From an uncultured Rhodobacterales bacterium (lineage in GTDB: Bacteria > Pseudomonadota > Alphaproteobacteria > Rhodospirillales > Rhodospirillaceae), in contig CAYYXR010000033.1 of NCBI GenBank assembly GCA_964475755.1, positions 1 to 32,000 of the forward strand: 32,000 bases of DNA, given 5' to 3'. This document shows positions 18,533 through 31,944 of the stretch, piece by piece. The position numbers were made by a program, and so were the translations under genes. The notes under the pieces were generated by a model. It was given only the letters and a program-made list of their open reading frames with translations, searched no databases and was not told the origin of the DNA. Positions within the stretch are counted from its first letter, which is position 1, and the number at the start of each line of letters is the position of its first letter.

Positions 18533-19366
18533 TTAGCCGCCGAAGGTGCGTACCGGCGTCCCAAGCAGCCAGTACACCCAGACGAACAGGAACAGCCACA
18601 CCACGTCAACGAAGTGCCAGTACCAGGCTGCGGCTTGGAAGCCGACGTGCTTATGCGGTTTGAAGTGATCTTTGTTGGCGCGGAAACCGCAGACCAACAA
18701 GAACACTGTTCCAACGAACACGTGGAAACCGTGGAAGCCGGTTGCGAGATAGAACGTGGACGAATAGATCCCGTCAGTGAACCCGAATGCAGCGTGGCTG
18801 TATTCGTAAGCCTGCAGGCCGAGAAACAGCGCACCGAGCGCGGCAGTGATGAAAATCCATTTAGCCGCCAGCTTGTTGTTGCCTTCTTCGATGAAGATGT
18901 GGGCGCGGGTGACGGTGCCGCCCGAGGTGAGGAGAATCACTGTGTTATAGAATGGCAGGTCCCAGGCATCGAACGGCACAACGCCGGCCGGGGGCCATTG
19001 GAGCGTCACCGTGGAGAAGCCGAGAGAATTGTGAAAGAAGGCCCAGAAAAATGCGACGAAGAACATTACTTCGGAGGCGATGAACATCACCATTCCGTTG
19101 CGCAATCCGTCCGCAACCTTATCCGTATGCGCCTTTTGGATAACGGACTCTTTTACGACGTCACGCCACCAGAACACCATGGTCAGGATGACGAGGATGA
19201 ACCCTGGTATAAGAAGGGCGACACCCAAGTCTTCCATGCCGAGCACCGGCACGTTGTGGAAGTACATGATGGCGCTCACCGCCAAAACGAATGCGGAGAA
19301 GGCTCCCATGGTGGGCCATGGGCTGGGATCAACCATATGGAAAGGATGTTTAGCGTGGGCACTCAT
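18533..19366 (-). CDS. ctaE: Cytochrome c oxidase subunit III
   Basis: HPFHMVDPSPWP N-terminus, 7-TM pattern, and WYWHFVDVVWLFLF near the C-terminus. Confidence 0.95.
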   Translation of the reverse strand: MSAHAKHPFHMVDPSPWPTMGAFSAFVLAVSAIMYFHNVPVLGMEDLGVALLIPGFILVILTMVFWWRDVVKESVIQKAHTDKVADGLRNGMVMFIASEVMFFVAFFWAFFHNSLGFSTVTLQWPPAGVVPFDAWDLPFYNTVILLTSGGTVTRAHIFIEEGNNKLAAKWIFITAALGALFLGLQAYEYSHAAFGFTDGIYSSTFYLATGFHGFHVFVGTVFLLVCGFRANKDHFKPHKHVGFQAAAWYWHFVDVVWLFLFVWVYWLLGTPVRTFGG

Positions 19367-19385
19367 GGGCTAGTCCTTTTGGTTC

Positions 19386-19976
19386 TCAATTAACTTGCGC
19401 GGTTTCTTCCGTATCCACGCTCGCTTCTTTCATCATGTCTTCGAGCGAGCGGAAAAACGTATATGACAACGTTATGGTACGAACTTCATCGGTTGTACTG
19501 TCGTCAATCATTTCGGGATCGACAAAGAACGAAACCGCCATATCCACGGTTTCTCCTGGCTGCAGCGTTTGCTCCTGAAAGCAAAAGCAATCAATCTTAT
19601 TGAAGTACAGACCGGTTTTCTCTGGCGTGACGTTGAAGGTCGCGGTGCCGGTGGTCGGTTGGTCCGAAATATTTTTCGCAACGTAGTGCGCGGTTACCGT
19701 TTCACCGATCTTCATGGTGACCGTTTTCTGCGCCGGATAGAATTCCCAGGGCAATTCCTTGTCCACGTAGGAATCAAGGCGGACGGTCATGGGGATGTCT
19801 TCGGTCCTTGTGGATGGTGCGGACGCGATTTGCGTTGTGCCATCAAGGCCCAACGCCCGGCAAAAGGCATCGTAGAACGGGACAAACGCAAACGAAGCGC
19901 CGACCATCGCTATCGGCACCGCGAGAACGGTAACCGCCAGCCAAAGGTTTCGGCGCTTAAGTTTGTTTTGATCCAT
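19386..19976 (-). CDS. ctaG: Cytochrome c oxidase assembly protein CtaG/Cox11 (CuB insertion)
   Basis: N-terminal TM segment, FVPFYDAFCRALG and KIDCFCFQEQ motifs. Confidence 0.95.
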   Translation of the reverse strand: MDQNKLKRRNLWLAVTVLAVPIAMVGASFAFVPFYDAFCRALGLDGTTQIASAPSTRTEDIPMTVRLDSYVDKELPWEFYPAQKTVTMKIGETVTAHYVAKNISDQPTTGTATFNVTPEKTGLYFNKIDCFCFQEQTLQPGETVDMAVSFFVDPEMIDDSTTDEVRTITLSYTFFRSLEDMMKEASVDTEETAQVN

Positions 19977-20006
19977 TTGCGTTTCGTCCCGACGGTGCGA
20001 ACCGGA

Positions 20007-21641
<1,635 letters not shown>

Positions 21642-21660
21642 TTATACGGTCGTACCGTTA

Positions 21661-22506
21661 TTACTGTGCAGCGGCTACTTGTGTATCGGAAGCGGGCTCA
21701 ATGCCTGCTTGTTGTTGCTCTACGTATCGCTGGAATTCTGCTTTGCTTACGACATCGACAACGATTGGCATCAAGGAGTGTTCGACGCCGCAAAGCTCCG
21801 AGCATTGTCCGTAGTAGCGGCCTTCCTTGGTCACGCGAGTCCAGGTCTCGTTGACCCGGCCGGGCATGTTGTCGAGTTTCACGCCGAACGCCGGAATGGT
21901 CCACGCGTGGATCACGTCGTTGGACGTGAAAAGCAGGCGGATGGTTGTATCCACCGGCAGAATAACGTGGGTGTCGGTTTCGAACTGGCGATGCTGACCG
22001 GCGGCATAATCAATTTGATCGTTCGGGAGCGGCAGCGCGTCGTACGAAATATCGTATTCCGGCAGCTCATATGACCAGAACCATTGATTGCCTGTGATCC
22101 GCAAGGTCATGTCCGCTTCTTCGACGCGGTCCATATAAAAGAGGATGCGATAGGACGGGATCGCGATGGCGACAAGAATAAGTACCGGAATAACGGTCCA
22201 TGTCACTTCAAGCCACGTCTTGTGAGACCACTTGGCCGGAACCGGATTTGCGCGCTCATTGAAGCGGAAGATGCAAATCAGCAGAAGCACCAGCACAAAC
22301 AGAGAAATCGCTGTGATGATCACGAGAAGGAAGTTGTGAAAATCCACCAATTGCTCGGCGACCGGAGTAACCGGTGTTTGCAATCCCAATTGCCATTCCT
22401 TCGGAAATGACGGTGTCGGCATTTCCGCATAGTCGGCGGCGAGGGTGGGGAGGGCGGAAAAAAGAGTAGAAAATACGGCGGCAATCGCCAGAGTTACACG
22501 GCTCAC
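21661..22506 (-). CDS. ctaC: Cytochrome c oxidase subunit II
   Basis: CuA site CSELCGVEHSLM, two TM helices, WFWSYEY. I prefer the GTG at 22506 (GGAG 8 nt upstream) over the TTG at 22593 given in the ORF track. Confidence 0.9.
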   Translation of the reverse strand: MSRVTLAIAAVFSTLFSALPTLAADYAEMPTPSFPKEWQLGLQTPVTPVAEQLVDFHNFLLVIITAISLFVLVLLLICIFRFNERANPVPAKWSHKTWLEVTWTVIPVLILVAIAIPSYRILFYMDRVEEADMTLRITGNQWFWSYELPEYDISYDALPLPNDQIDYAAGQHRQFETDTHVILPVDTTIRLLFTSNDVIHAWTIPAFGVKLDNMPGRVNETWTRVTKEGRYYGQCSELCGVEHSLMPIVVDVVSKAEFQRYVEQQQAGIEPASDTQVAAAQ

Positions 22507-22828
22507 ACTTAGTCTCCATTGTAGCCCGCAGGCGGCCAATCGTTTAAGCGGCCCCGCCAGGGGGTTCAACTGAATTTTTACGAGGTTTTTCAATTTTTTG
22601 AGCCACAGCCCCGGCCGGTTCTGACGCCCCCGCAGGCCAACCTCTCTGCCCTGCCGGGAGAGTAGCCGAACGCTTTTGGCCCGTAAAGCCGCAACGGCGC
22701 AGTTTTCCGCCCTCCCCGAGCCTTCCGATTAGGGTTTTCCAGAGCCCCTGGATCGGCTACAAGTCGCCTCCGACGAATTCTCCCGGGCGGACGCCCATGG
22801 GTCCGGTGGGGTCAAGAGCAGGTGTGCC

Positions 22829-22972
22829 GTGTCTGATAATAATTCCAAAGATCCAAATGAGCTGACCCCGGCGCAAAAGAAGCGTTTGTGGCTGTTCGGA
22901 CTCGCCGTCGCGGCTGTTTCCGTATTCATGTATGTAAGTTTCATCATTAAAACCGCGGTCAAAGGCCCTTAG
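22829..22972 (+). CDS. Candidate 47-aa single-pass membrane protein (not in the supplied ORF track)
   Basis: GTG at 22829 to TAG at 22970-22972. Translates to (M)SDNNSKDPNELTPAQKKRLWLFGLAVAAVSVFMYVSFIIKTAVKGP: polar N-terminus, KKR, one TM. RBS is weak. Lies 71 nt upstream of the DUF420 gene on the same strand. Confidence 0.3.
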   Translation: MSDNNSKDPNELTPAQKKRLWLFGLAVAAVSVFMYVSFIIKTAVKGP

Positions 22973-23043: not shown

Positions 23044-23475
23044 ATGACCGCCCAGCAAATTCTTCCGCACGTTAATGCCGCCCTAAATACACTCTCGACG
23101 ATCCTTCTGGTGATCGGTTTCGTGATGATTCGCAGCGGTCGTAAGGACGCTCACAAGAAAGTCATGATATCAGCGATTGCCGTCTCGGCTTTGTTTTTGG
23201 TTTTCTATCTCATCTACCATTTCACTGCGCCGATCTTTGTGTTTCCGGGCACCGGGTGGACCGTGCCGGCGTACTACGCAATGCTGATCAGCCACGTTAT
23301 TTTGGCGACGGTCGTGACACCCATGGTCATGGTTACGGCATGGCGCGCATGGCATGGAAGATTTGACAAACATAAAGCTATCGCCCGCTGGACACTTCCT
23401 ATTTGGCTTTATGTTACGGTGACCGGGGTGGCTATTTATGCCATCCTTTATCACGTTTACCCCGTCAGCCCGTGA
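23044..23475 (+). CDS. DUF420 (CtaM-like) membrane protein
   Basis: LPHVNAALNTLSTILLVIG, H-rich core (YLIYHF, ISHVILA), and HKAIARWTLPIWLYVTVTGVAIY, the characteristic DUF420 pattern. Confidence 0.85.
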   Translation: MTAQQILPHVNAALNTLSTILLVIGFVMIRSGRKDAHKKVMISAIAVSALFLVFYLIYHFTAPIFVFPGTGWTVPAYYAMLISHVILATVVTPMVMVTAWRAWHGRFDKHKAIARWTLPIWLYVTVTGVAIYAILYHVYPVSP

Positions 23476-23530: not shown

Positions 23531-25033
23531 ATGGACGAAAAAGAGGTCATCGCGCGTTCATTGCCGCCGCCGGTCGATGTGGCGGTCGATGGACATTTCG
23601 CGGGAAAGCTGACACCCCATCTTTATTACGAGCTGCGCGGATGGATTTTCCTGCCCATGGCCGCGCTTGGACTGGCCGGCTTTATGGCGCTTGTGCTGGC
23701 GATTGCCCGTGTGCCCGGCGCAGACATGCTAATGCCCTGGACCGGCCAGACCTTCTTTCAAAAGGGCCTTGTCGCACACGTCACCTTCGCATTTGTCGTC
23801 TGGTACATGGGCGTGCACGGCGCGATGACCATCCTTGCGACCTCGCAATGTCTGGCGGGCCGGGAAATGGGAGCCTTCAGCATTATTCTGGGGCGCACAG
23901 CTGTATATGGCGCCGGGTTTAGTTTGCTGATGATGCTGGTGCCCGCGCTTGCCGACTTAGGCGAACCGTCCCTCAACAACTACATCCCCGTTCTCATACA
24001 CCCGCTGTTCTACGCCGGGCTCGCGCTGCTTGCAGTGTGTCTGGCGTTGCCGGTGATGCGCCTGCTGGCTTTGGTGGCTCGGACAGATGACATGGAGGCG
24101 TCCGCATTCGGGGTGGCGGCAGCTGGAGTGATTTATCTTACCGCCCTTGTTTGCGTCGGGGCGGCGGCGGCGACCATTCCGCAAAATGCTGGTGCTGAGG
24201 GCACGAATGAATATGTCATGTGGGGCGGGGGACACGTTCTGCAATTCGCGAACACGCTTTTGATGCTGAGTGCGTTCTATATTCTTTCCCGCATCACCCT
24301 GGGCGAAAATCCGATCGAAGCCAAATGGTTCAAGAACATGGCTTTGATTATGGTCGCGGGCGCGGCAGCAGGGCCGCTGTTGTACTTGTCGTACCAGGGT
24401 GGCGATCCAACCCAGCGCATGGCGTTCACTTATATGTACTGGTTCGCGCTGCCGATACCGTCGGCGGTGATTTTGGGGAGCGTCGTCGCGCTGCTTTACA
24501 AGCGTAGACACGATATTTTGACTGGGCCACCTGAAGCCATCGGTATGGCAACCGCACTGGTCCTTTTCGCGTTCGGCGGCGTCATCGGATATTTCGAGGG
24601 TTCGGTGGATACGCGGACCCCGAGCCACTATCACGCCATGCTGATCGCCGTGACCCTGGCGTTTATCGCACTTTATTTCGCGCTGTTTCTGCCGTTGATC
24701 GGGCTGCGCACGTCCCGCAAGAAGCTGCGCATGGCCATGTATCTGCTACTGGGCGGGGGGCAGTTCCTGCACTCCTTGGGGCTATATTTGGCCGGCCTGG
24801 AAGGGGTGGTGCGTAAAACCGCCGGGGCCGCCCAGGGGCTGGACAGCGGCTGGAAGGTCGCCACCATGTCCATGATGGGTCTGGGCGGGATTATCGCGGT
24901 TTCAGGCGGCGTGATCTTTGTGGTCCTGGCCGGTAGAATGCTGTTGGCACGGTGCGGTGGAGGTGGTACCGCAGGCGCCGTCGCGCCCGACGGCCCCGCG
25001 CTGGATGCCAGAACCGGGGCAGGCGCGGAATGA
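23531..25033 (+). CDS. Heme-copper-oxidase subunit-I-like polytopic membrane protein (divergent paralog lacking the CuB His-His pair)
   Basis: 500 aa with 12 or more hydrophobic segments. GLVAH83VTF, MWGGGH235VLQF and DTRTPSH366YH368AM align by eye with the helix II, VI and X ligand motifs of the CtaD in this window. The stop overlaps the ctaB ATG. Confidence 0.65.
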   Translation: MDEKEVIARSLPPPVDVAVDGHFAGKLTPHLYYELRGWIFLPMAALGLAGFMALVLAIARVPGADMLMPWTGQTFFQKGLVAHVTFAFVVWYMGVHGAMTILATSQCLAGREMGAFSIILGRTAVYGAGFSLLMMLVPALADLGEPSLNNYIPVLIHPLFYAGLALLAVCLALPVMRLLALVARTDDMEASAFGVAAAGVIYLTALVCVGAAAATIPQNAGAEGTNEYVMWGGGHVLQFANTLLMLSAFYILSRITLGENPIEAKWFKNMALIMVAGAAAGPLLYLSYQGGDPTQRMAFTYMYWFALPIPSAVILGSVVALLYKRRHDILTGPPEAIGMATALVLFAFGGVIGYFEGSVDTRTPSHYHAMLIAVTLAFIALYFALFLPLIGLRTSRKKLRMAMYLLLGGGQFLHSLGLYLAGLEGVVRKTAGAAQGLDSGWKVATMSMMGLGGIIAVSGGVIFVVLAGRMLLARCGGGGTAGAVAPDGPALDARTGAGAE

Positions 25034-25938
25034 ATCAGGTTTCGGGAACGGATAGGATCACCATGCAAATTCGCAGCTACATCGAGCTGATGAAATTGCG
25101 GATCGGCTTTTTGATCGCCGTCAGCGCCATGGCCGGATACGCCGCCGTGGCGCATCAGGTGGACGCATGGCAGTTGGCGATTTTGTTTGTCGCGATGCTG
25201 CTGGGGTCTTCGGGCTCCGCCGTTTTCAACCAATTTTACGACCGGGATATCGACCGCCTGATGCCGCGCACCGCGCAAAGGCCGCTGGCCGCCGGTACGC
25301 TGGAAGATCCGCGCCGTGCGCTGTGGTTTGCGGGCTTGTTGCTGTTGGCCGGATGTGCGCTGGCGCTACTGGCGTTTAATTGGGTGGTCGCGCTGCACTT
25401 ATTTCTCGGCGCCTTCGTGTACGGCGTTGTGTACACGGTCTGGCTCAAGCGCCGTCATTGGACCAACATCATCATCGGCGGTGCGGCGGGTAGTTTTGCC
25501 GTACTGGCCGGCGCGGCGGCGGTCGATCCGAACATCTGGCTTCTGCCGGCGTTGATGGCGATTACGCTCTTCTTATGGACGCCGTCGCACTTTTGGGCGC
25601 TTGCGATTCTCATTAAGGATGATTACGCGAAGGCCGGTGTACCGATGCTGCCGGTGATCGCCGGCGATGCGGTGTGTGCGAAGTGGATTTTCGCGAACAC
25701 GATTGCGTTGGTTGGGTCGGCCTTATTACCGGTGGTGTTCGGCCAACTCGGCTGGCTCTATGCCGTCGTGTCCACCGCGTTCGGACTGCGGTTTTTGTGG
25801 CTGAACTGGATGCTGGTGCGTGATCCGTCACGCGATCTGGCGCGGCGCAATTTCCTGTTCTCGATGCAGTATCTGGCCGGTGTGTTCCTGGCGGTTGTGA
25901 TCGACAAGCATGTGCCGCTGTCGGCCATCAGGCTATAG
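25030..25938 (+). CDS. ctaB: Protoheme IX farnesyltransferase (heme O synthase)
   Basis: UbiA-family motifs NQFYDRDIDRLMPRTAQRPLAAG and YTVWLKRRHWTNIIIGG. ATG at 25030 forms an ATGA overlap with the upstream stop; ATG at 25063 is an alternative start. Confidence 0.92.
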   Translation: MNQVSGTDRITMQIRSYIELMKLRIGFLIAVSAMAGYAAVAHQVDAWQLAILFVAMLLGSSGSAVFNQFYDRDIDRLMPRTAQRPLAAGTLEDPRRALWFAGLLLLAGCALALLAFNWVVALHLFLGAFVYGVVYTVWLKRRHWTNIIIGGAAGSFAVLAGAAAVDPNIWLLPALMAITLFLWTPSHFWALAILIKDDYAKAGVPMLPVIAGDAVCAKWIFANTIALVGSALLPVVFGQLGWLYAVVSTAFGLRFLWLNWMLVRDPSRDLARRNFLFSMQYLAGVFLAVVIDKHVPLSAIRL

Positions 25939-25986
25939 GCCAAAGCGGCGAAATCAAATTCACAGCAATTGCGGACAGGAGCGGCG

Positions 25987-26748
25987 ATGAGCCGGATTGT
26001 CTGGATTACCGGGGCGGGCAAGGGCATCGGACGAGCGGTGGCCCTGGCGTATGCGGCGCACGGCTGGACCGTTGCGGTGAGTGCGCGCACGGGCGATGAT
26101 CTTGACACTCTTTCCGCCGAGGCCAAAGACGCAAACCTGCCGGGCCGCGTTGTTCCTTATGCTGCGGACGTGACCGATCACGACGCCATGAAGCAGACAT
26201 TCAAGCAGATCGAACATGACGTGGGCGCGGTGGAACACGTCATTTTGAATGCAGGTACGCACATGCCGAGCCCGGCGAAAAAATTCAACACCGAAGCTTA
26301 TCGTACATTGTTGGAAATCAACGTGATGGGCAGTGTGAACGGGCTTTCCGCTGTTTTGCCGACCTTCATCGAACGTAAATCAGGGCGCATTGGCATTGTC
26401 GCATCGGTGGCCGGATACAGCGGGTTGCCCGCGGCCGGGGCATACGGCGCCAGCAAGGCAGCGCTGATCAACATGTGCGAGGCATTGAAGACGGAATTGG
26501 ACTCGTTGGGTGTGGGTCTGTCCGTCATCAATCCCGGATTTGTGCGCACGCCGTTGACCGCCAAGAATAAATTCCCGATGCCGTTCCTGATTGATGCGGA
26601 TGTCGCCGCGCGGCACATTTACAACGGCATGCAAAAGGGCAAGTTCGAGATCGCGTTTCCGCGCACTTTCGTGATCATCCTGAAGATTTTGCGCATGCTA
26701 CCCTACGGTCTGTACTTCCCGATCATTAAGAAGGTGACCGGACTATGA
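25987..26748 (+). CDS. SDR-family oxidoreductase
   Basis: ITGAGKGIGRAVAL, NAG, and YGASKAAL (YxxxK). ATG at 25987 with AGGAG 5 nt upstream. Confidence 0.85.
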   Translation: MSRIVWITGAGKGIGRAVALAYAAHGWTVAVSARTGDDLDTLSAEAKDANLPGRVVPYAADVTDHDAMKQTFKQIEHDVGAVEHVILNAGTHMPSPAKKFNTEAYRTLLEINVMGSVNGLSAVLPTFIERKSGRIGIVASVAGYSGLPAAGAYGASKAALINMCEALKTELDSLGVGLSVINPGFVRTPLTAKNKFPMPFLIDADVAARHIYNGMQKGKFEIAFPRTFVIILKILRMLPYGLYFPIIKKVTGL

Positions 26749-27185
26749 GTGCTTCGCGTTCAGTTGGTCCGGCCGACGCCTATATACGCTTTTACGAAGA
26801 GCTTGGCCCTGACACTGTCGATCGCTTGAGGGAGGTTGCCAGCGATGACGTCCGCTTTCGTGATCCGTTCAACGACGTTACAGGACTGGAGGCGTATCGC
26901 CGGCTGTTGGTAAAGATGTATGACACTTTGCCCGATGCGAAATTTATCGTGACTCATCAAAGCGTGGACGGGGATACGTGTTTTATTCGCTGGCGCTCAG
27001 AGGCGACGTTGCGCGGAAAGCCATGGATTGTAGAAGGAATGAGCGAATTGAGGTTCGCACCCGACGGCAAGGTGCGTGAACACATCGACCATTGGGATGC
27101 GGCGGGGCAATTCTACGAACGTTTTCCAATCATCGGGTCAATGATCAGGTTCATTCGGCGGCGCGTGGCGAAGGCGCATCAATAG
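26745..27185 (+). CDS. NTF2-fold (SnoaL-like) protein
   Basis: ATGA overlap with the SDR stop. VRFRDPFNDVTGLEAYRRL and CFIRWR patterns, typical of the SnoaL-like partners of SDRs in lipid-modification clusters. Confidence 0.65.
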   Translation: MSASRSVGPADAYIRFYEELGPDTVDRLREVASDDVRFRDPFNDVTGLEAYRRLLVKMYDTLPDAKFIVTHQSVDGDTCFIRWRSEATLRGKPWIVEGMSELRFAPDGKVREHIDHWDAAGQFYERFPIIGSMIRFIRRRVAKAHQ

Positions 27186-28533
27186 CGCGGCGCGCCAGAC
27201 CATCCAGCCTCTTGCGGATAACGCCCTGCCGCGCGGCGGTGATGGGAAATCCCCAGATCATGAAAATGGTCATGATTTTTAGAGCCACGGGCACAAGCGA
27301 ATACCCCACCGCCACGGCGAGCACCGCCGTGGCGTCATTCGCGCCGCCGGCGGAAAATCCAAACGCATCCAGCACGGGGAAAGCGATGCCTACGCCCAGC
27401 GCAAACGCAAGCTTAGTCGACATGCTCCAGAGGGCGAAAAACAGACCGGCCCGTTGCTCACCTGTTTTGAGGGTATCGTAGTCAACGACATCGGCCTGCA
27501 GGGCCGGGGGCAGGGCGAGGTCCGCGCCAAGGCCCATGCCGGTGACGACACAGATGAGTCCAAATGCGATCACTTGGCCGGGCTCAAGCAGAGGCACCCA
27601 AACAAAAGCAAGGCACGCAATGATCATCGATACACACCAGGTTCGGTGTTTGCTCCATTTGCGGCTGAGCATAAGCCATGCGGGAATGGCCGCGACGGCG
27701 CTGAAGAAATAGACCAGCGTCAGAACGCTTCTTGCTGTTTGACCGGCTTGCAGGGCGTGTTCGAGATACAGGAGAAATAGGGAGGCCGGGATGCCTGTCG
27801 CGAGACCGTTGATAAACCATGCCGCGATTAGACGAACAAACGGCCGGTTTTTTGCAATATGACGCAGTTGCAGAACAAACGATTTCGAGCTGTTTGGCTT
27901 TGTTGTTTCAGACCTTGCGCGGGATATGTCCGGCACGCGCCACAGCATAATGGCAATGAACGGCCCACCAATGAGAACGGCCATCCAGGAAATCGCCGCG
28001 TAGGCGTCTTGTTCGGTGCCGCCTGTACTGGAGACAAATGTCGGTACAATACCGGCGGCCAGTATGCCGATGACCATCATGCCTTCGCGTGCGGAGGTAA
28101 TCCGTGCGCGTTCGAAATAATCGCCTGAAAGTTCCGCACCCCAAGCCGTGTAAGGCACTTGAACCAATGTCCAACCGACGTAAAGCAGCACCGACCAGAG
28201 CATAAAGTATGTGACAGTGACGTTTTCCGGCGGCTGAAAGAGTTGGAGGATCGCAATACCGCCGACGATGCCGCCGACGACGATCCAGGGTTTGCGGCGG
28301 CCCCAACGTGAGTGCCATTTATCGCTATATAGGCCGACAAAGGGATCGACGACGACATCTATGCCGCGCGCAATCAGCAAGGCAAGTCCGGCGGCCGAAA
28401 GTCCGAGCGCTTCACCGTAAAACGCCGGTAGGAAGATGAATGCCGGGATCATGGGCATGGCTAGGGCAAAGCCGGGCAGGGCATACGCAATGAGACGCCC
28501 TGTCGGAACGTGATCGGCGTTGTGCTGTGTCAT
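27151..28533 (-). CDS. MFS transporter, glycoside-pentoside-hexuronide (GPH)-like
   Basis: 12-TM pattern. N-terminal GIDVVVDPFVGLYSDKWHSRWGRRKPW is the typical GPH/MelB-like signature. The start lies 2 nt after the CFA-synthase-like stop. Confidence 0.85.
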   Translation of the reverse strand: MTQHNADHVPTGRLIAYALPGFALAMPMIPAFIFLPAFYGEALGLSAAGLALLIARGIDVVVDPFVGLYSDKWHSRWGRRKPWIVVGGIVGGIAILQLFQPPENVTVTYFMLWSVLLYVGWTLVQVPYTAWGAELSGDYFERARITSAREGMMVIGILAAGIVPTFVSSTGGTEQDAYAAISWMAVLIGGPFIAIMLWRVPDISRARSETTKPNSSKSFVLQLRHIAKNRPFVRLIAAWFINGLATGIPASLFLLYLEHALQAGQTARSVLTLVYFFSAVAAIPAWLMLSRKWSKHRTWCVSMIIACLAFVWVPLLEPGQVIAFGLICVVTGMGLGADLALPPALQADVVDYDTLKTGEQRAGLFFALWSMSTKLAFALGVGIAFPVLDAFGFSAGGANDATAVLAVAVGYSLVPVALKIMTIFMIWGFPITAARQGVIRKRLDGLARRAIDAPSPRAAE

Positions 28534-28535
28534 GG

Positions 28536-29747
28536 TTATTGGCGAACCAGCTTGAATTGGCCGACGTTGATCGCGTTCGCCCTAAAGCCGCCTTCGCAGT
28601 ACGCAAGATACATTTCCCACATGCGGCGAAAGCGCTCATCGAAACCCATTGGCTCTATCGCGTGCCAAGAGGAGAGGAATCTATCGCGCCAGAGCTTGAG
28701 CGTTTGCGCGTAGCTTGCGCCGAACATTGTTGCGCCTTCGAAACTCAACTTGGCGCGGTCGAACTGTTCCCTCAGGGCTTCCACCGAAGGCAGCATGCCG
28801 CCAGGAAAGATGTATTTCTGGATGAAGTCCGCGTTACGCCGATACTGATCAAACCGGTTTTCGGCGATGGTAATGATTTGCAATGCGGCTGCGCCGCCAT
28901 TGGTCAGGCGTTCGTGAATCATGTTGAAATATCTGGGCCAATGGCGCTCGCCGACGGCTTCGAACATTTCGATCGAAGCGATGCGATCAAAGGTGCCTTC
29001 TACGTCTCTGTAGTCCTGAAGGCGCAGATCGACTTTGTCCGAAAGCCCGGCCTGCTGAATGCGCTGGGAAGCAAAGGTAAGCTGCTCCTTAGACAATGTC
29101 AGACCAGTGATTTGACAGCCATGCGTTCTGGCGGCGTATTCGGCAAATCCACCCCATCCGCATCCAATCTCAAGAATGCGGTGTTCGGGCTTTAAGTCGA
29201 GCATTTCCGCAATGCGGCGGTATTTTGCGATTTGCCCCTCGGACAGCGGCTGGTCGGGCGCGTCGAACATCGCAGAAGAGTACGTCATGGTTGGATCGAG
29301 CCACTTTCCGTAGAACTCGTTCCCCAGGTCATAGTGGGCGGCGATATTCTTACGGCTTCCCCTTTTTGAATTGGGGCGCATCACGTGAAGAAGTCTGTTC
29401 CACGTTTCATATATGGCGTTTTGCAGGCCGTTTCCTTGCCACTTATTTGGATTCATTGCCGCGAGCTCGATAACCTTGGATAGGTCGGGGCTTTCCCAGT
29501 CGCCGTCCAAGTAAGCTTCAACGAATCCGGACTCTCCTTGCGTTAAAAAGCGGCGGATAGCCCGATATCTGTTTATGCGGACAGTTGCTTTTGGTTCCAG
29601 TGAAAGGCGCCCATCCAAATGATAGGTCGAGCCGTCCGGAAAAATGAGTGTCAGCTGCCCTTTTTCCAGCCGGCTTGCGATACTGATAAATTTTTCGATG
29701 AAGCTGTTGCCGGGCGCTGAAACATCGCCGTCAGTTGCGTTCACCAT
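28536..29747 (-). CDS. Cyclopropane-fatty-acyl-phospholipid-synthase-family SAM-dependent methyltransferase
   Basis: NIAAHYDLGNEFY, SAM-binding ILEIGCGWGGFA, SIEMFEAVG, IQKYIFPGG and YLAYCEGGF motifs. Confidence 0.9.
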   Translation of the reverse strand: MVNATDGDVSAPGNSFIEKFISIASRLEKGQLTLIFPDGSTYHLDGRLSLEPKATVRINRYRAIRRFLTQGESGFVEAYLDGDWESPDLSKVIELAAMNPNKWQGNGLQNAIYETWNRLLHVMRPNSKRGSRKNIAAHYDLGNEFYGKWLDPTMTYSSAMFDAPDQPLSEGQIAKYRRIAEMLDLKPEHRILEIGCGWGGFAEYAARTHGCQITGLTLSKEQLTFASQRIQQAGLSDKVDLRLQDYRDVEGTFDRIASIEMFEAVGERHWPRYFNMIHERLTNGGAAALQIITIAENRFDQYRRNADFIQKYIFPGGMLPSVEALREQFDRAKLSFEGATMFGASYAQTLKLWRDRFLSSWHAIEPMGFDERFRRMWEMYLAYCEGGFRANAINVGQFKLVRQ

Positions 29748-29770
29748 ATCTGCCTCGCTTCACGCTTGGG

Positions 29771-30586
29771 TCAAGCTGCGATCTCTTTCCGATCCTTGAC
29801 AACCGTCACCGGATTGGGCGGCGGCGCCGGATGGTGCACAAGCGGTATGCCCTTCATCCATAATCTTAGAGCCTCCCAATGGATTCCACCAATAACCTTT
29901 AGGGTCATAAGCGGATATTTGAAAAATAGCTTCAAGGCCGCGCTTCGGGTTAGCCCATGTTGGGTGCCGTTGAACGCGGCATACAATAGCTGTCCATCAC
30001 CGTCTGTTTCATCTATCGCGATGGAAATCGCGCCGTCCGGCGGCTTAATTCGAAAATGATATGTCATGTCCATTTCTATGAATGGAGAGACGTACATTTC
30101 TTTTTTGCACGACTGCTCAATGAACGATCCGGCCTTCGCACAATTTTTATCAGTTGGGATGAGATAGGAATGACGCTCATGAAACGTATTCGTAACCTGA
30201 TACAAAATGGCCGCAAGGTCTTCGCCGGTGCTGCTTTTGGTATAACAGAAATAAACACTGAGGGGATTGAAGACGTATCCTAGGATGCGGGGGTAGCAGA
30301 GCAGGCGAATAGACCCGCCCCTTAAGTCGATTCCTGCAACTTTTAATTTGTCCTCGACCCATGCGCGCAGCGGTGCGCCGTCACCGGCTCCGTGGTCCCG
30401 GTCGTGAAAGGACAGCAAGCCAAAGGTGTTGTAGCTAAATCCACGCAGGTTTTGATGAAGGCGCGGTAATTCGTTCAAATCCAAGAGCATTGAGAATACG
30501 CGATATTGCAATGCATGCTGCTTGGGGCGAGTTCTATTGTGAACGACGCGCCCTTCATAAATGCAGGAATTCAGTTCGCCCGTCAC
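29771..30586 (-). CDS. DUF1365-family protein
   Basis: N-terminal IYEGRVVHNRTRPKQHALQYRVFSMLLDLNEL, then YPRILGYVFNPLSVYFCY. GTGA overlap with the upstream gene. Confidence 0.8.
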   Translation of the reverse strand: MTGELNSCIYEGRVVHNRTRPKQHALQYRVFSMLLDLNELPRLHQNLRGFSYNTFGLLSFHDRDHGAGDGAPLRAWVEDKLKVAGIDLRGGSIRLLCYPRILGYVFNPLSVYFCYTKSSTGEDLAAILYQVTNTFHERHSYLIPTDKNCAKAGSFIEQSCKKEMYVSPFIEMDMTYHFRIKPPDGAISIAIDETDGDGQLLYAAFNGTQHGLTRSAALKLFFKYPLMTLKVIGGIHWEALRLWMKGIPLVHHPAPPPNPVTVVKDRKEIAA

Positions 30587-31944
30587 GCCGCCTCGCTGTA
30601 AATCGCAGGCAGTGCGATCCTGCCGGATTCATTTTCAACGTGCCACGGCCTTCGTACGCCACCCAACGCTTCCGCGACCGCCAGCCCCGACTGTAACCCG
30701 TCTTCATGAAACCCATGACCGAAATAGGCACCACAAAACCAAGTTCGGTTGGCGCCTTGCAGGGTCCACAGCGATTTCTGCGCGTTTAGAGCGGCGTGAT
30801 CAAAAATGGGGTGCTCGTACTCGAATGACTTGATGAAACACTCTTCGTTGGGGGGCCGGTGAGGGTTGAGGGTCACAAATATCGGAAAACGCTCGTCGAT
30901 ATTCTGAAGAAGGTTCATCCAATAAGTCAGGCTGACCAAATTGGAAGTGGATGCAGCTTCGTCCGAGATGTAATTCCAACTTGCCCAGGCGCGGCGCCGC
31001 TTCGGCATCAGAGAGTTATCGGTATGCAGAACGGCGGTATTGCGCTCATACCGAATGGCGCCGAGCGTTTGTTGCTCCAGCGCGCTGGCATTGGCCAGTA
31101 TTGAAAGCGCTTGATCGCTGTGCGTTGCGAGCACGACGTGATCGAACCGGCGCGTCTGCCCGTTTTCCAATGTCAACTCAACGTGATCAGAGTGACGGAC
31201 AATCCTTTTTACGCCGCAATTCAGGTTGATACGGTCTGCAAATGATTGCGTCAGCCGCTGAACGTAACTTCGGCTGCCGCCGGTGACCGTTCGCCACTGA
31301 AGTCTGTTTCGGGCCTTTGCCTCCAGAAGCCCGTGGTTCTTGAAGAAACGCACAAAGGCGGTCAATGGATAGGCGAGCATCTCTCTATAAGACGCGGACC
31401 AGATTGAGCGGCCCAAAGGCAACAAGTAGTCTTGAATAAAACTTTCCGAATAGCCGTTCGTCTTCAGGAAGGTGCCCAGCGTCAACGAGGGCTCGGCCGC
31501 TTTTTGATCAAATTCCGATGCCTCGCGGAAGAATCGTATGATGTCCCAAACCATGTTCCAAAATCGAGGCCGCAATAGGTTCCGCTTCTGAGCAAGCATG
31601 CTTCGAAGGTTGTATCCGGAATACTCGAATGCGCCGTTTTCCACAGATGCCGAGAACGACATGTCGCTCGGTTCCGTCGCGACGCCGAGGTGTTTGAATA
31701 GAGCAGTTAGATTAGGATAGGTGACTTCGTTAAATACAATAAAACCAGTATCAACGGGAATTGATCGTTCCTGCATACGCCAGTTCACGGGAACATCAAC
31801 GGTGTTGCAATGTCCGCCTATCCAGTTTACTTTTTCGAAGACTTCGACGTCATGACGTTTGTTCAGCAGCCACGCAGCGGCCATGCCCGATACGCCCGTC
31901 CCAATGACGGCAATTTGCAGACGGTCTTTGCTTAAATGTGTCAC
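30583..31944 (-). CDS. FAD-dependent oxidoreductase (amine-oxidase / phytoene-desaturase-like)
   Basis: N-terminal dinucleotide-binding IAVIGTGVSGMAAAWLL...VEVFEK and C-terminal WFCGAYFGHGFHEDGLQSG. GTG at 31944 with AGAGGG upstream. Confidence 0.85.
   Translation of the reverse strand: MTHLSKDRLQIAVIGTGVSGMAAAWLLNKRHDVEVFEKVNWIGGHCNTVDVPVNWRMQERSIPVDTGFIVFNEVTYPNLTALFKHLGVATEPSDMSFSASVENGAFEYSGYNLRSMLAQKRNLLRPRFWNMVWDIIRFFREASEFDQKAAEPSLTLGTFLKTNGYSESFIQDYLLPLGRSIWSASYREMLAYPLTAFVRFFKNHGLLEAKARNRLQWRTVTGGSRSYVQRLTQSFADRINLNCGVKRIVRHSDHVELTLENGQTRRFDHVVLATHSDQALSILANASALEQQTLGAIRYERNTAVLHTDNSLMPKRRRAWASWNYISDEAASTSNLVSLTYWMNLLQNIDERFPIFVTLNPHRPPNEECFIKSFEYEHPIFDHAALNAQKSLWTLQGANRTWFCGAYFGHGFHEDGLQSGLAVAEALGGVRRPWHVENESGRIALPAIYSEAA

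Follow-up and report, generated by a model that had tools for sequence, protein, structure and literature searches.

How the hydrophobic and reactive hemes O and A travel from heme O synthase (CtaB) and heme A synthase (CtaA) into subunit I of a heme-copper oxidase (HCO) is a long-standing gap in our picture of oxidase biogenesis. SURF1/Shy1 and CbaX, accessory membrane proteins, supply subunit I with heme a; many bacteria lack SURF1. Here we describe a gene, referred to as X, which encodes a protein of 500 amino acids (aa) on a stretch of 32,000 nucleotides (nt) from an uncultured Rhodobacterales bacterium (contig CAYYXR010000033.1, positions 1-32,000, assembly GCA_964475755.1; this whole stretch is called the window below). 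X is a homologue of HCO subunit I that lacks the site for the second active-site metal, its reading frame overlaps that of the heme O synthase gene ctaB, and its family is a concrete and widespread candidate for heme delivery.

Precedents for the replacement of active-site histidines are found in gNOR and NOD, two HCO families with an altered ligand set, in which one His has given way to another polar ligand and which are predicted to be still catalytic. Murali et al. (PNAS 2024, PMC11214002) describe gNOR as the first HCO family in which even a single active-site His is replaced. In the nitric oxide (NO) reductase eNOR heme As occupies both sites, and many eNOR operons contain ctaA (PMC11214002); how eNOR obtains heme A under near-anoxia has been raised as a question (bioRxiv 10.64898/2026.01.22.701106). 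Murali et al. (PMC11214002) do not describe a protein like X, nor does one appear in reviews on the assembly of oxidases or the evolution of heme A synthase. The closest description is a label in a preprint on Ferrigenium straubiae, which calls one gene of an eNOR operon 'eNOR scaffold protein', 'of unknown function', gives IMG 2878407321 as 'hypothetical protein' with the KO K02274, that of COX subunit I, and reports the 'scaffold' protein in proteomics at a level close to that of eNOR I (bioRxiv 10.64898/2026.01.22.701106). An earlier sequence-only reading of the window had known of no characterised member with the ligand pattern of X, and no member is known to be characterised; however, the family has not gone wholly unnoticed, the 'eNOR scaffold protein' being an apparent member.

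Fold and ligand positions of X

The reading frame of X (23531..25033, + strand) is intact, running from an ATG at 23531 to a TGA at 25031-25033, and its product is confirmed as a true HCO subunit I homologue with a 12-helix transmembrane fold by Pfam, AlphaFold2, Foldseek and profile alignment. The PF00115 (COX1) model matches residues 39-435 with 48.8 bits (E 6.5e-13, gathering cut-off 34.8 bits), far below the 546 bits of the CtaD encoded 2 kb away, and neither the NCBIfam models scanned nor, in the Pfam scan, PF02628 (COX15-CtaA, with eight transmembrane helices in two four-helix halves) matched X. An AlphaFold2 model computed with 39 homologues as input (pLDDT 87, pTM 0.87) contains 12 long helices, and Foldseek aligned it to A-, B- and C-type subunit I with TM-scores of 0.65-0.72 (E ~1e-7), while NO reductases matched more weakly than oxidase subunit I. 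The best match among solved structures is subunit I of the Thermus thermophilus ba3 oxidase (PDB 1EHK, 3S8F, 4G71; TM-score 0.70-0.72), with which X shares 18-19% identity. Searches of the PDB with the single X sequence or with a narrow X profile found no oxidase, and only a diverse profile of 81 family sequences reached ba3, over its full length and with an E-value of 3e-27. Comparison of the X family with a four-sequence CtaD alignment by hhalign covered the helix IX-XII region only (E 0.5).

The alignment of the 81-sequence profile to ba3 subunit I provided the ligand map, in which the heme ligands and the propionate residues of ba3 align with X (codons on the + strand throughout). His83 in helix II (23777..23779) takes the position of the axial ligand of the low-spin heme (ba3 H72), and in the His366-Tyr367-His368 motif of helix X (24626..24634) H366 corresponds to ba3 H384, the proximal ligand of the high-spin heme, and H368 to ba3 H386, the second low-spin ligand. 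Arg428-Lys429 in the loop between helices XI and XII (24812..24817) occupies the heme-propionate Arg-Arg position (ba3 R449-R450). In helix VI, His235-Val-Leu-Gln238 (24233..24244) contains the sole CuB-ligand position that is kept, H235 (ba3 H233), together with Q238, which aligns to ba3 V236 beside the active site. X differs from ba3 in that Leu284-Tyr285 in helix VII (24380..24385) stands in place of the His-His CuB pair (H282-H283), Phe239 (24245..24247) lies at the position of the cross-linked Tyr (Y237), and the K-channel residues Y244, Y248, S309, T312 and T315 correspond to hydrophobic consensus positions of the X family. The B-type proton channel appears to be absent from X, and an unrelated pathway may exist.

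These positions are strongly conserved. H83, H235, H366 and H368 are invariant across 39 close and about 130 distant homologues, and in 131 representative sequences H83, W231, G234, H235, Q238, P364, H366, Y367, H368, R428 and K429 are essentially invariant, with Q238 invariant throughout; altogether about 14 residues are invariant over sequences down to 26% identity. The Phe239 column contains Phe in 98 of the 131 sequences and Tyr in five, Y285 is frequent, and helix VII contains no conserved His, Asp, Glu, Cys or Met in any column across the 131 sequences. H327, the only His of X between H235 and H366, is not conserved in the family. In all 80 genomic homologues that were fetched, the signature columns read H-E-W-H-Q-F-(L/I/F)-(Y/F)-H-Y-H-R-K. 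A single exception among the 131 representatives, P0179 (447 aa), keeps a His-His pair in helix VII ('APFHHL') and otherwise has the family motifs GHxLQF and PAHYH. It suggests that the metal site was ancestral and lost later, and P0179 itself may represent an evolutionary intermediate.

Without the His-His pair of helix VII, X cannot hold FeB or CuB in the manner known from other HCOs. The predictions that both heme pockets are preserved (the bis-His pair H83/H368, H366 and the propionate pair R428-K429) and that X cannot form a canonical heme-CuB or heme-FeB centre and has neither the Tyr cofactor nor the B-type proton channel are firmly supported by the ligand map. The sequence-only reading had proposed this pattern by eye, from the three heme-ligand histidines, H235 as CuB ligand, the missing His-His pair and the Phe at +4 from H235, and had concluded that the protein could bind two hemes but probably not build a canonical heme-CuB centre; the ba3 alignment bears out each of these assignments, with heme binding predicted from sequence, and the ligand spacings given in that reading (152 and 131 residues in X versus 179 and 135 in CtaD) are correct.

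Set against the known families, X goes further than any precedent. gNOR, the published record-holder, replaces one His only, and in both gNOR and NOD another polar ligand takes its place, whereas in X two His are exchanged for Leu and Tyr or Phe with no conserved compensating ligand, which makes it the most extreme known active-site ligand loss in the HCO superfamily. The likeness to eNOR subunit I is closer: both have a 12-transmembrane-helix fold, the helix VI signature W-x-x-G-H-x-x-Q-x-x-N, the H-x-H of helix X and no cross-linked Tyr. The columns that read H-R-W-H-Q-Q-H-H-H-F-H-R-R in eNOR-like proteins read H-E-W-H-Q-F-(L/I/F)-(Y/F)-H-Y-H-R-K in X, so that GHxSQQ with S(E/A)HH contrasts with GHxLQF with (L/I/F)(Y/F). 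The three-His site that defines eNOR is incomplete in X, no subunit II gene adjoins X in the window, and from these motifs NO reduction by X is not expected.

Distribution and relationships of the family

A first homology search with X returned 282 relatives with 52-80% identity from Rhodospirillaceae-type genomes. When 1.84 billion representatives were then searched exhaustively with a profile, 1,319 matched at E ≤ 1e-3, 481 of them at E ≤ 1e-30; the matches are clusters at 50% identity, and ordinary oxidases were not drawn in. With one genome scanned per species, at least 594 species proved to carry a relative, and a search seeded with a Rhodocyclaceae member added 6,643 further clusters at 90% identity. 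The family comprises over a thousand 50%-identity clusters and thousands of metagenomic variants. Carriers among the Alphaproteobacteria include Rhodospirillaceae, Terasakiella, Telmatospirillum, Magnetovibrio, Hyphomicrobium, Rhodomicrobium and Rhodoblastus, and further carriers belong to the Beta- and Gammaproteobacteria, 'Deltaproteobacteria', Nitrospirota and Nitrospinota. Two contig labels stand out: a contig labelled Candidatus Marinimicrobia (L011, CANISR010000020.1) encodes a 64%-identical X within the full Rhodospirillaceae cta synteny and is probably mis-binned, and the Actinomycetota label of JBLNBU010000172.1 (L024) may warrant the same caution.

Scored with the X-family hidden Markov model (HMM), co-encoded eNOR-like proteins reached a median of 176 bits (range 143-185), ba3 subunit I 87 bits and A-type CtaD a median of about 11 bits. 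X (WGGGHVLQFAN) and eNOR-like proteins (WxxGHxSQQIN) have the helix VI signature GH-x-x-Q-x-x-N in common, and, because of this signature and the HMM scores, eNOR/B-family enzymes are the nearest catalytic relatives of X. The best explanation of the sequence relationships is that X descends from the eNOR/B-family branch as a catalytically stripped paralogue of the catalytic subunit of an HCO. The sequence-only reading had called X a paralogue of subunit I, and this stands for the superfamily as a whole, but the medians of about 11 bits for CtaD versus 176 for eNOR-like proteins rule out a recent duplicate of the adjacent ctaD and place X in a separate family. A pseudogene is ruled out by the conservation and breadth of the family.

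Database entries for the family bear generic names ('hypothetical', 'cytochrome c oxidase subunit I' or 'cbb3-type cytochrome c oxidase subunit I') and the KO K02274. Under such annotations metagenomic surveys will count X genes as oxygen reductases, which, judging by their sequence, they cannot be.

Genomic context

The stop codon of X and the start codon of the downstream gene share an ATGA at 25030..25033 (+ strand; ATG at 25030-25032, TGA at 25031-25033), which can be read directly in the sequence gcggaATGAatc and which the sequence-only reading had pointed out. The identical 4-nt overlap occurs in two other loci (L005 and L009), and it is the translational coupling of X and ctaB. The downstream gene (25030..25938, +) encodes heme O synthase according to TIGR01473 (278.1 bits, cut-off 210.3) and PF01040. 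In one homologue the two proteins are joined outright: P0186 (748 aa) consists of an X domain with the full signature fused to a heme O synthase (TIGR01473, 250 bits, cut-off 210). Upstream, at a distance of 55 nt, X follows a gene for a protein of four transmembrane helices of the DUF420 (CtaM) family (23044..23475, +; PF04238, 140.8 bits, E 4e-41), again as read from the sequence before. CtaM is a DUF420 protein needed for aa3 activity (PMC9145763, PMC8239418).

The setting was compared across 82 X loci, of which 40 have at least 8 kb on both sides and are called full-flank loci below; ORFs in the fetched loci were called mechanically, and antisense artefacts in high-GC loci (clusters 1, 3, 12 and 18) were ignored. 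Within 1.5 kb of X, ctaB was found in 57-58 and DUF420 in 52 of the 82 loci, and a SCO1-like gene lies near X in 19 and a true CtaA gene (PF02628) in at least ten. In the full-flank loci ctaB lies within 10 kb of X in 37 cases and within 1.5 kb in 33, and a complete A-type or eNOR-like subunit I is encoded near X in 31. Eight further full-flank loci have ctaB adjoining X and no structural oxidase gene, with DUF420 in six of these and ctaA in two; L049 and L073 show the full set without a structural oxidase gene, that is ctaA on one strand and, facing it on the other, ctaB together with the small ORF, DUF420 and X. One full-flank locus (L045) contains X and a small COX2-like gene only. No structural oxidase gene is linked to X as tightly as the gene for heme O synthase, a conclusion firmly supported by these counts, and both the link to ctaB and the synteny hold across phyla.

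Two types of operon accompany X. A-type cta operons were found at 36 loci, and in the clade of the window the layout is fixed down to 52% identity, with ctaE-ctaG-ctaD-ctaC on one strand and a conserved ORF of 38-47 aa with one transmembrane segment, DUF420, X and ctaB diverging from it. The X-linked alphaproteobacterial ctaC-D-G-E operons contain no ctaB, and they mostly lack SURF1 at its classical position: SURF1 follows ctaE in one of about 24 of them, and genes for DUF983 (nine) or DUF2189 (four) are found there. The second type, eNOR-like operons with subunits II and I, X, ctaB and SCO, was found at seven loci, five of which (L078, L074, L048, L058 and L067) share the order small COX2-like gene, eNOR-like subunit I, X, ctaB, SCO1. 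Genes for cytochrome b-[4Fe-4S]-FlpD proteins lie near these operons. The gene for eNOR subunit I thus often shares an operon with X, ctaB and SCO1.

The F. straubiae operon (eNOR II, eNOR I, heme o synthase, sco1, cytochrome b/FeS) has the architecture of L074, whose X carries the full signature, and the X family members of these five loci fit the description of the 'scaffold' protein. The 'eNOR scaffold protein' very probably belongs to the X family, the match being one of architecture and KO only. The X of the window, beside an A-type aa3 operon and DUF420, lies in a setting unlike that of F. straubiae.

Genes with a possible part in electron transfer also occur around X. A COX2-like gene of 160-190 aa with the motif CxExCGxxHxxM overlaps the stop codon of X in six loci (L045, L019, L026, L037, L014 and L024). 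That this small gene always represents the subunit II of X is unsupported, given that it precedes a complete eNOR-like subunit I in L078, L074, L048 and L058. Proteins made up of cytochrome b, two [4Fe-4S] motifs and an FlpD (MvhD-like) domain repeatedly adjoin X and eNOR genes (L024:240-1793 on the + strand, L074:7811-9388, L048:14942-16534); they correspond to the 'Cytbc1-like' proteins of the F. straubiae preprint and echo a cytochrome b-X fusion (P0216). Another homologue, P0234, combines X with TPR repeats. Near X-ctaB in 'delta'/Nitrospirota loci lie genes for transmembrane proteins (L080:8415-8831 on the - strand, also L058, L059, L067 and L070) that are about 134-140 aa long, or 289 aa in the L067 call, and whose match to the COX1 model is confined to positions 342-399, with a helix X-like 'PIHTHF'. 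Genes for NifU-like and Mrp/NUBPL proteins and a small 2x[4Fe-4S] ferredoxin accompany them.

Possible functions of X

Our preferred reading, to which we give a probability of roughly 0.45, is that X is a heme O/A-binding maturation scaffold for farnesylated heme. X would be made together with CtaB, take heme O from it into the subunit-I-like membrane pocket, present this heme to CtaA in cases that call for heme A, and pass it on to the nascent catalytic subunit, which would be CtaD of the adjacent aa3 oxidase in the window and eNOR subunit I in other lineages, with DUF420/CtaM working alongside. We infer both the binding of heme O/A and a role in transfer or maturation over catalysis. Such a heme-handling role is favoured because X is an extra gene beside two heme-A-dependent enzymes, aa3 and the environmentally important NO reductase eNOR, and because some loci hold heme-A-pathway genes and X with no structural oxidase gene. 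Heme O/A handling or oxidase biogenesis had been one of two functions suggested in the sequence-only reading, and it survives as a proposal, strengthened by the cross-phylum link to ctaB and by the fusion with heme O synthase. The likeness to SURF1/Shy1 and CbaX is a functional analogy only, as X is related to neither of these proteins in sequence or fold, and NifEN, an inactive paralogue of nitrogenase NifDK that serves as a scaffold for cofactor maturation, is likewise a conceptual analogy only.

Several observations weigh against a maturation scaffold. The strict invariance of H235 and Q238 in the distal pocket resembles ligand chemistry more than passive carriage. P0216 is a fusion of a cytochrome b domain with X, weak COX2-like (cupredoxin) tails occur in P0154 and P0182, and in four loci (L045, L019, L026 and L037) small COX2-like genes with the CuA motif lie directly downstream of X with no other oxidase; these fusions and partners count against the scaffold because a pure chaperone would not need electrons. 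The same features, together with the frequent Y285, the COX2-like gene overlapping the stop codon of X in six loci, L045 with X and that gene only, and the delta/Nitrospirota loci that join X-ctaB with NifU, Mrp and cytochrome b-FeS genes, speak for the main rival, which the sequence-only reading had raised as an uncharacterised heme-only relative of oxidases and NO reductases and which survives, though we consider it less likely than the scaffold: X would be a stand-alone, copper-free membrane oxidoreductase using heme O in its active site, with electrons supplied by the small CuA cupredoxin or by cytochrome b and O2, NO or H2O2 reduced at the H366 heme, opposite the distal residues H235, Q238 and Y285. 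It is common for an oxidase operon to include a heme O synthase gene, and ctaB would stand beside X as cyoE does in the E. coli cyo operon. However, X lacks a subunit II of its own in the clade of the window, it is an additional gene in the 31 full-flank loci with a complete oxidase or eNOR, and at several loci it is clearly the adjacent eNOR-like subunit I to which the small COX2-like gene belongs. An enzyme of this kind would also have to work without a Tyr cofactor, a second metal site or a conserved B-type proton channel, and a fusion to heme O synthase would be unusual for a protein that merely uses the heme.

It is improbable, in our view, that X is an auxiliary enzyme of heme modification or heme A synthesis, in which the H83/H368 heme would be a fixed electron-transfer cofactor and the H366 pocket would hold heme O as substrate, so that X would oxidise or modify heme O or relay electrons or O2 to CtaA. 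The layout would mirror the two sites of heme A synthase, a cofactor heme b and a substrate heme O, and the fusion of X to the preceding enzyme of the pathway, its neighbours ctaA, ctaB and DUF420 and the electron-input fusions and partners, which would fit an oxygenase, are all consistent with it. Heme A synthesis requires O2 and an electron donor, and we know of no electron donor identified for it in bacteria; the supply of heme A to eNOR under near-anoxia, a question in the literature, would fit here as well. Against such an enzyme, aa3 is not known to need any further heme modification, and X has no sequence or fold relation to CtaA/Cox15. A normal CtaA adjoins X in at least ten loci, which rules out X as a general replacement of heme A synthase; for the clade of the window, in a search with a Rhodospirillales CtaA, none of the 120 matches listed (of 7,706) lay on a megabase contig carrying X. 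Extended to a new enzyme on the oxidase scaffold, with heme O in the pocket as substrate or reactive centre and electrons from a bis-His heme fed by cytochrome b or cupredoxin, the idea is a similarly long shot; X would then cover a step in the formation or loading of A-type heme beyond CtaA and SURF1, for instance at very low O2 for eNOR and aa3. By far the least probable reading takes X for a duplicated oxidase subunit that is decaying or has no function, or for a hemoprotein that senses gas or acts in regulation and has no part in heme supply. The loss of the catalytic metal site and the Tyr, and database names that are only generic or 'hypothetical', would be compatible with this, but the 1,319 clusters in at least 594 species, the approximately 14 residues invariant down to 26% identity, the synteny kept across phyla and the detection of the apparent F. 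straubiae homologue as a protein argue otherwise, and X contains no output or signalling domain.

Other features of the window

The string of small ORF, DUF420, X and ctaB begins with a 47-aa ORF with a GTG start and a single transmembrane segment (22829..22972, +), which is conserved in related loci (43-61% identity, motif FMYVSxIxKTAxxGP); gene calling picked it up in L001, L003 and L005. Its product may be a small subunit or an assembly peptide. A scan for promoters and terminators found nothing above chance. Divergent from the string, the ctaC-ctaD-ctaG-ctaE operon for an A-type aa3 oxidase (18533..22593, - strand; ORFs and Pfam) contains neither its own ctaB nor SURF1. Its CtaE (COX3, 18533-19366, -) shows a weak Pfam match to DUF420 over residues 137-267 (E 3e-5, below the cut-off), a hint at some resemblance between DUF420/CtaM and the helix bundle at the C-terminal end of subunit III. 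Downstream of ctaB, the region 25969-31944 encodes a short-chain dehydrogenase, a SnoaL-like protein, an MFS_2 transporter, a cyclopropane-fatty-acyl-phospholipid synthase, a DUF1365 protein and an amine-oxidase-type flavoprotein; this cluster is kept in synteny in L001 and L005, apparently with no relation to X.

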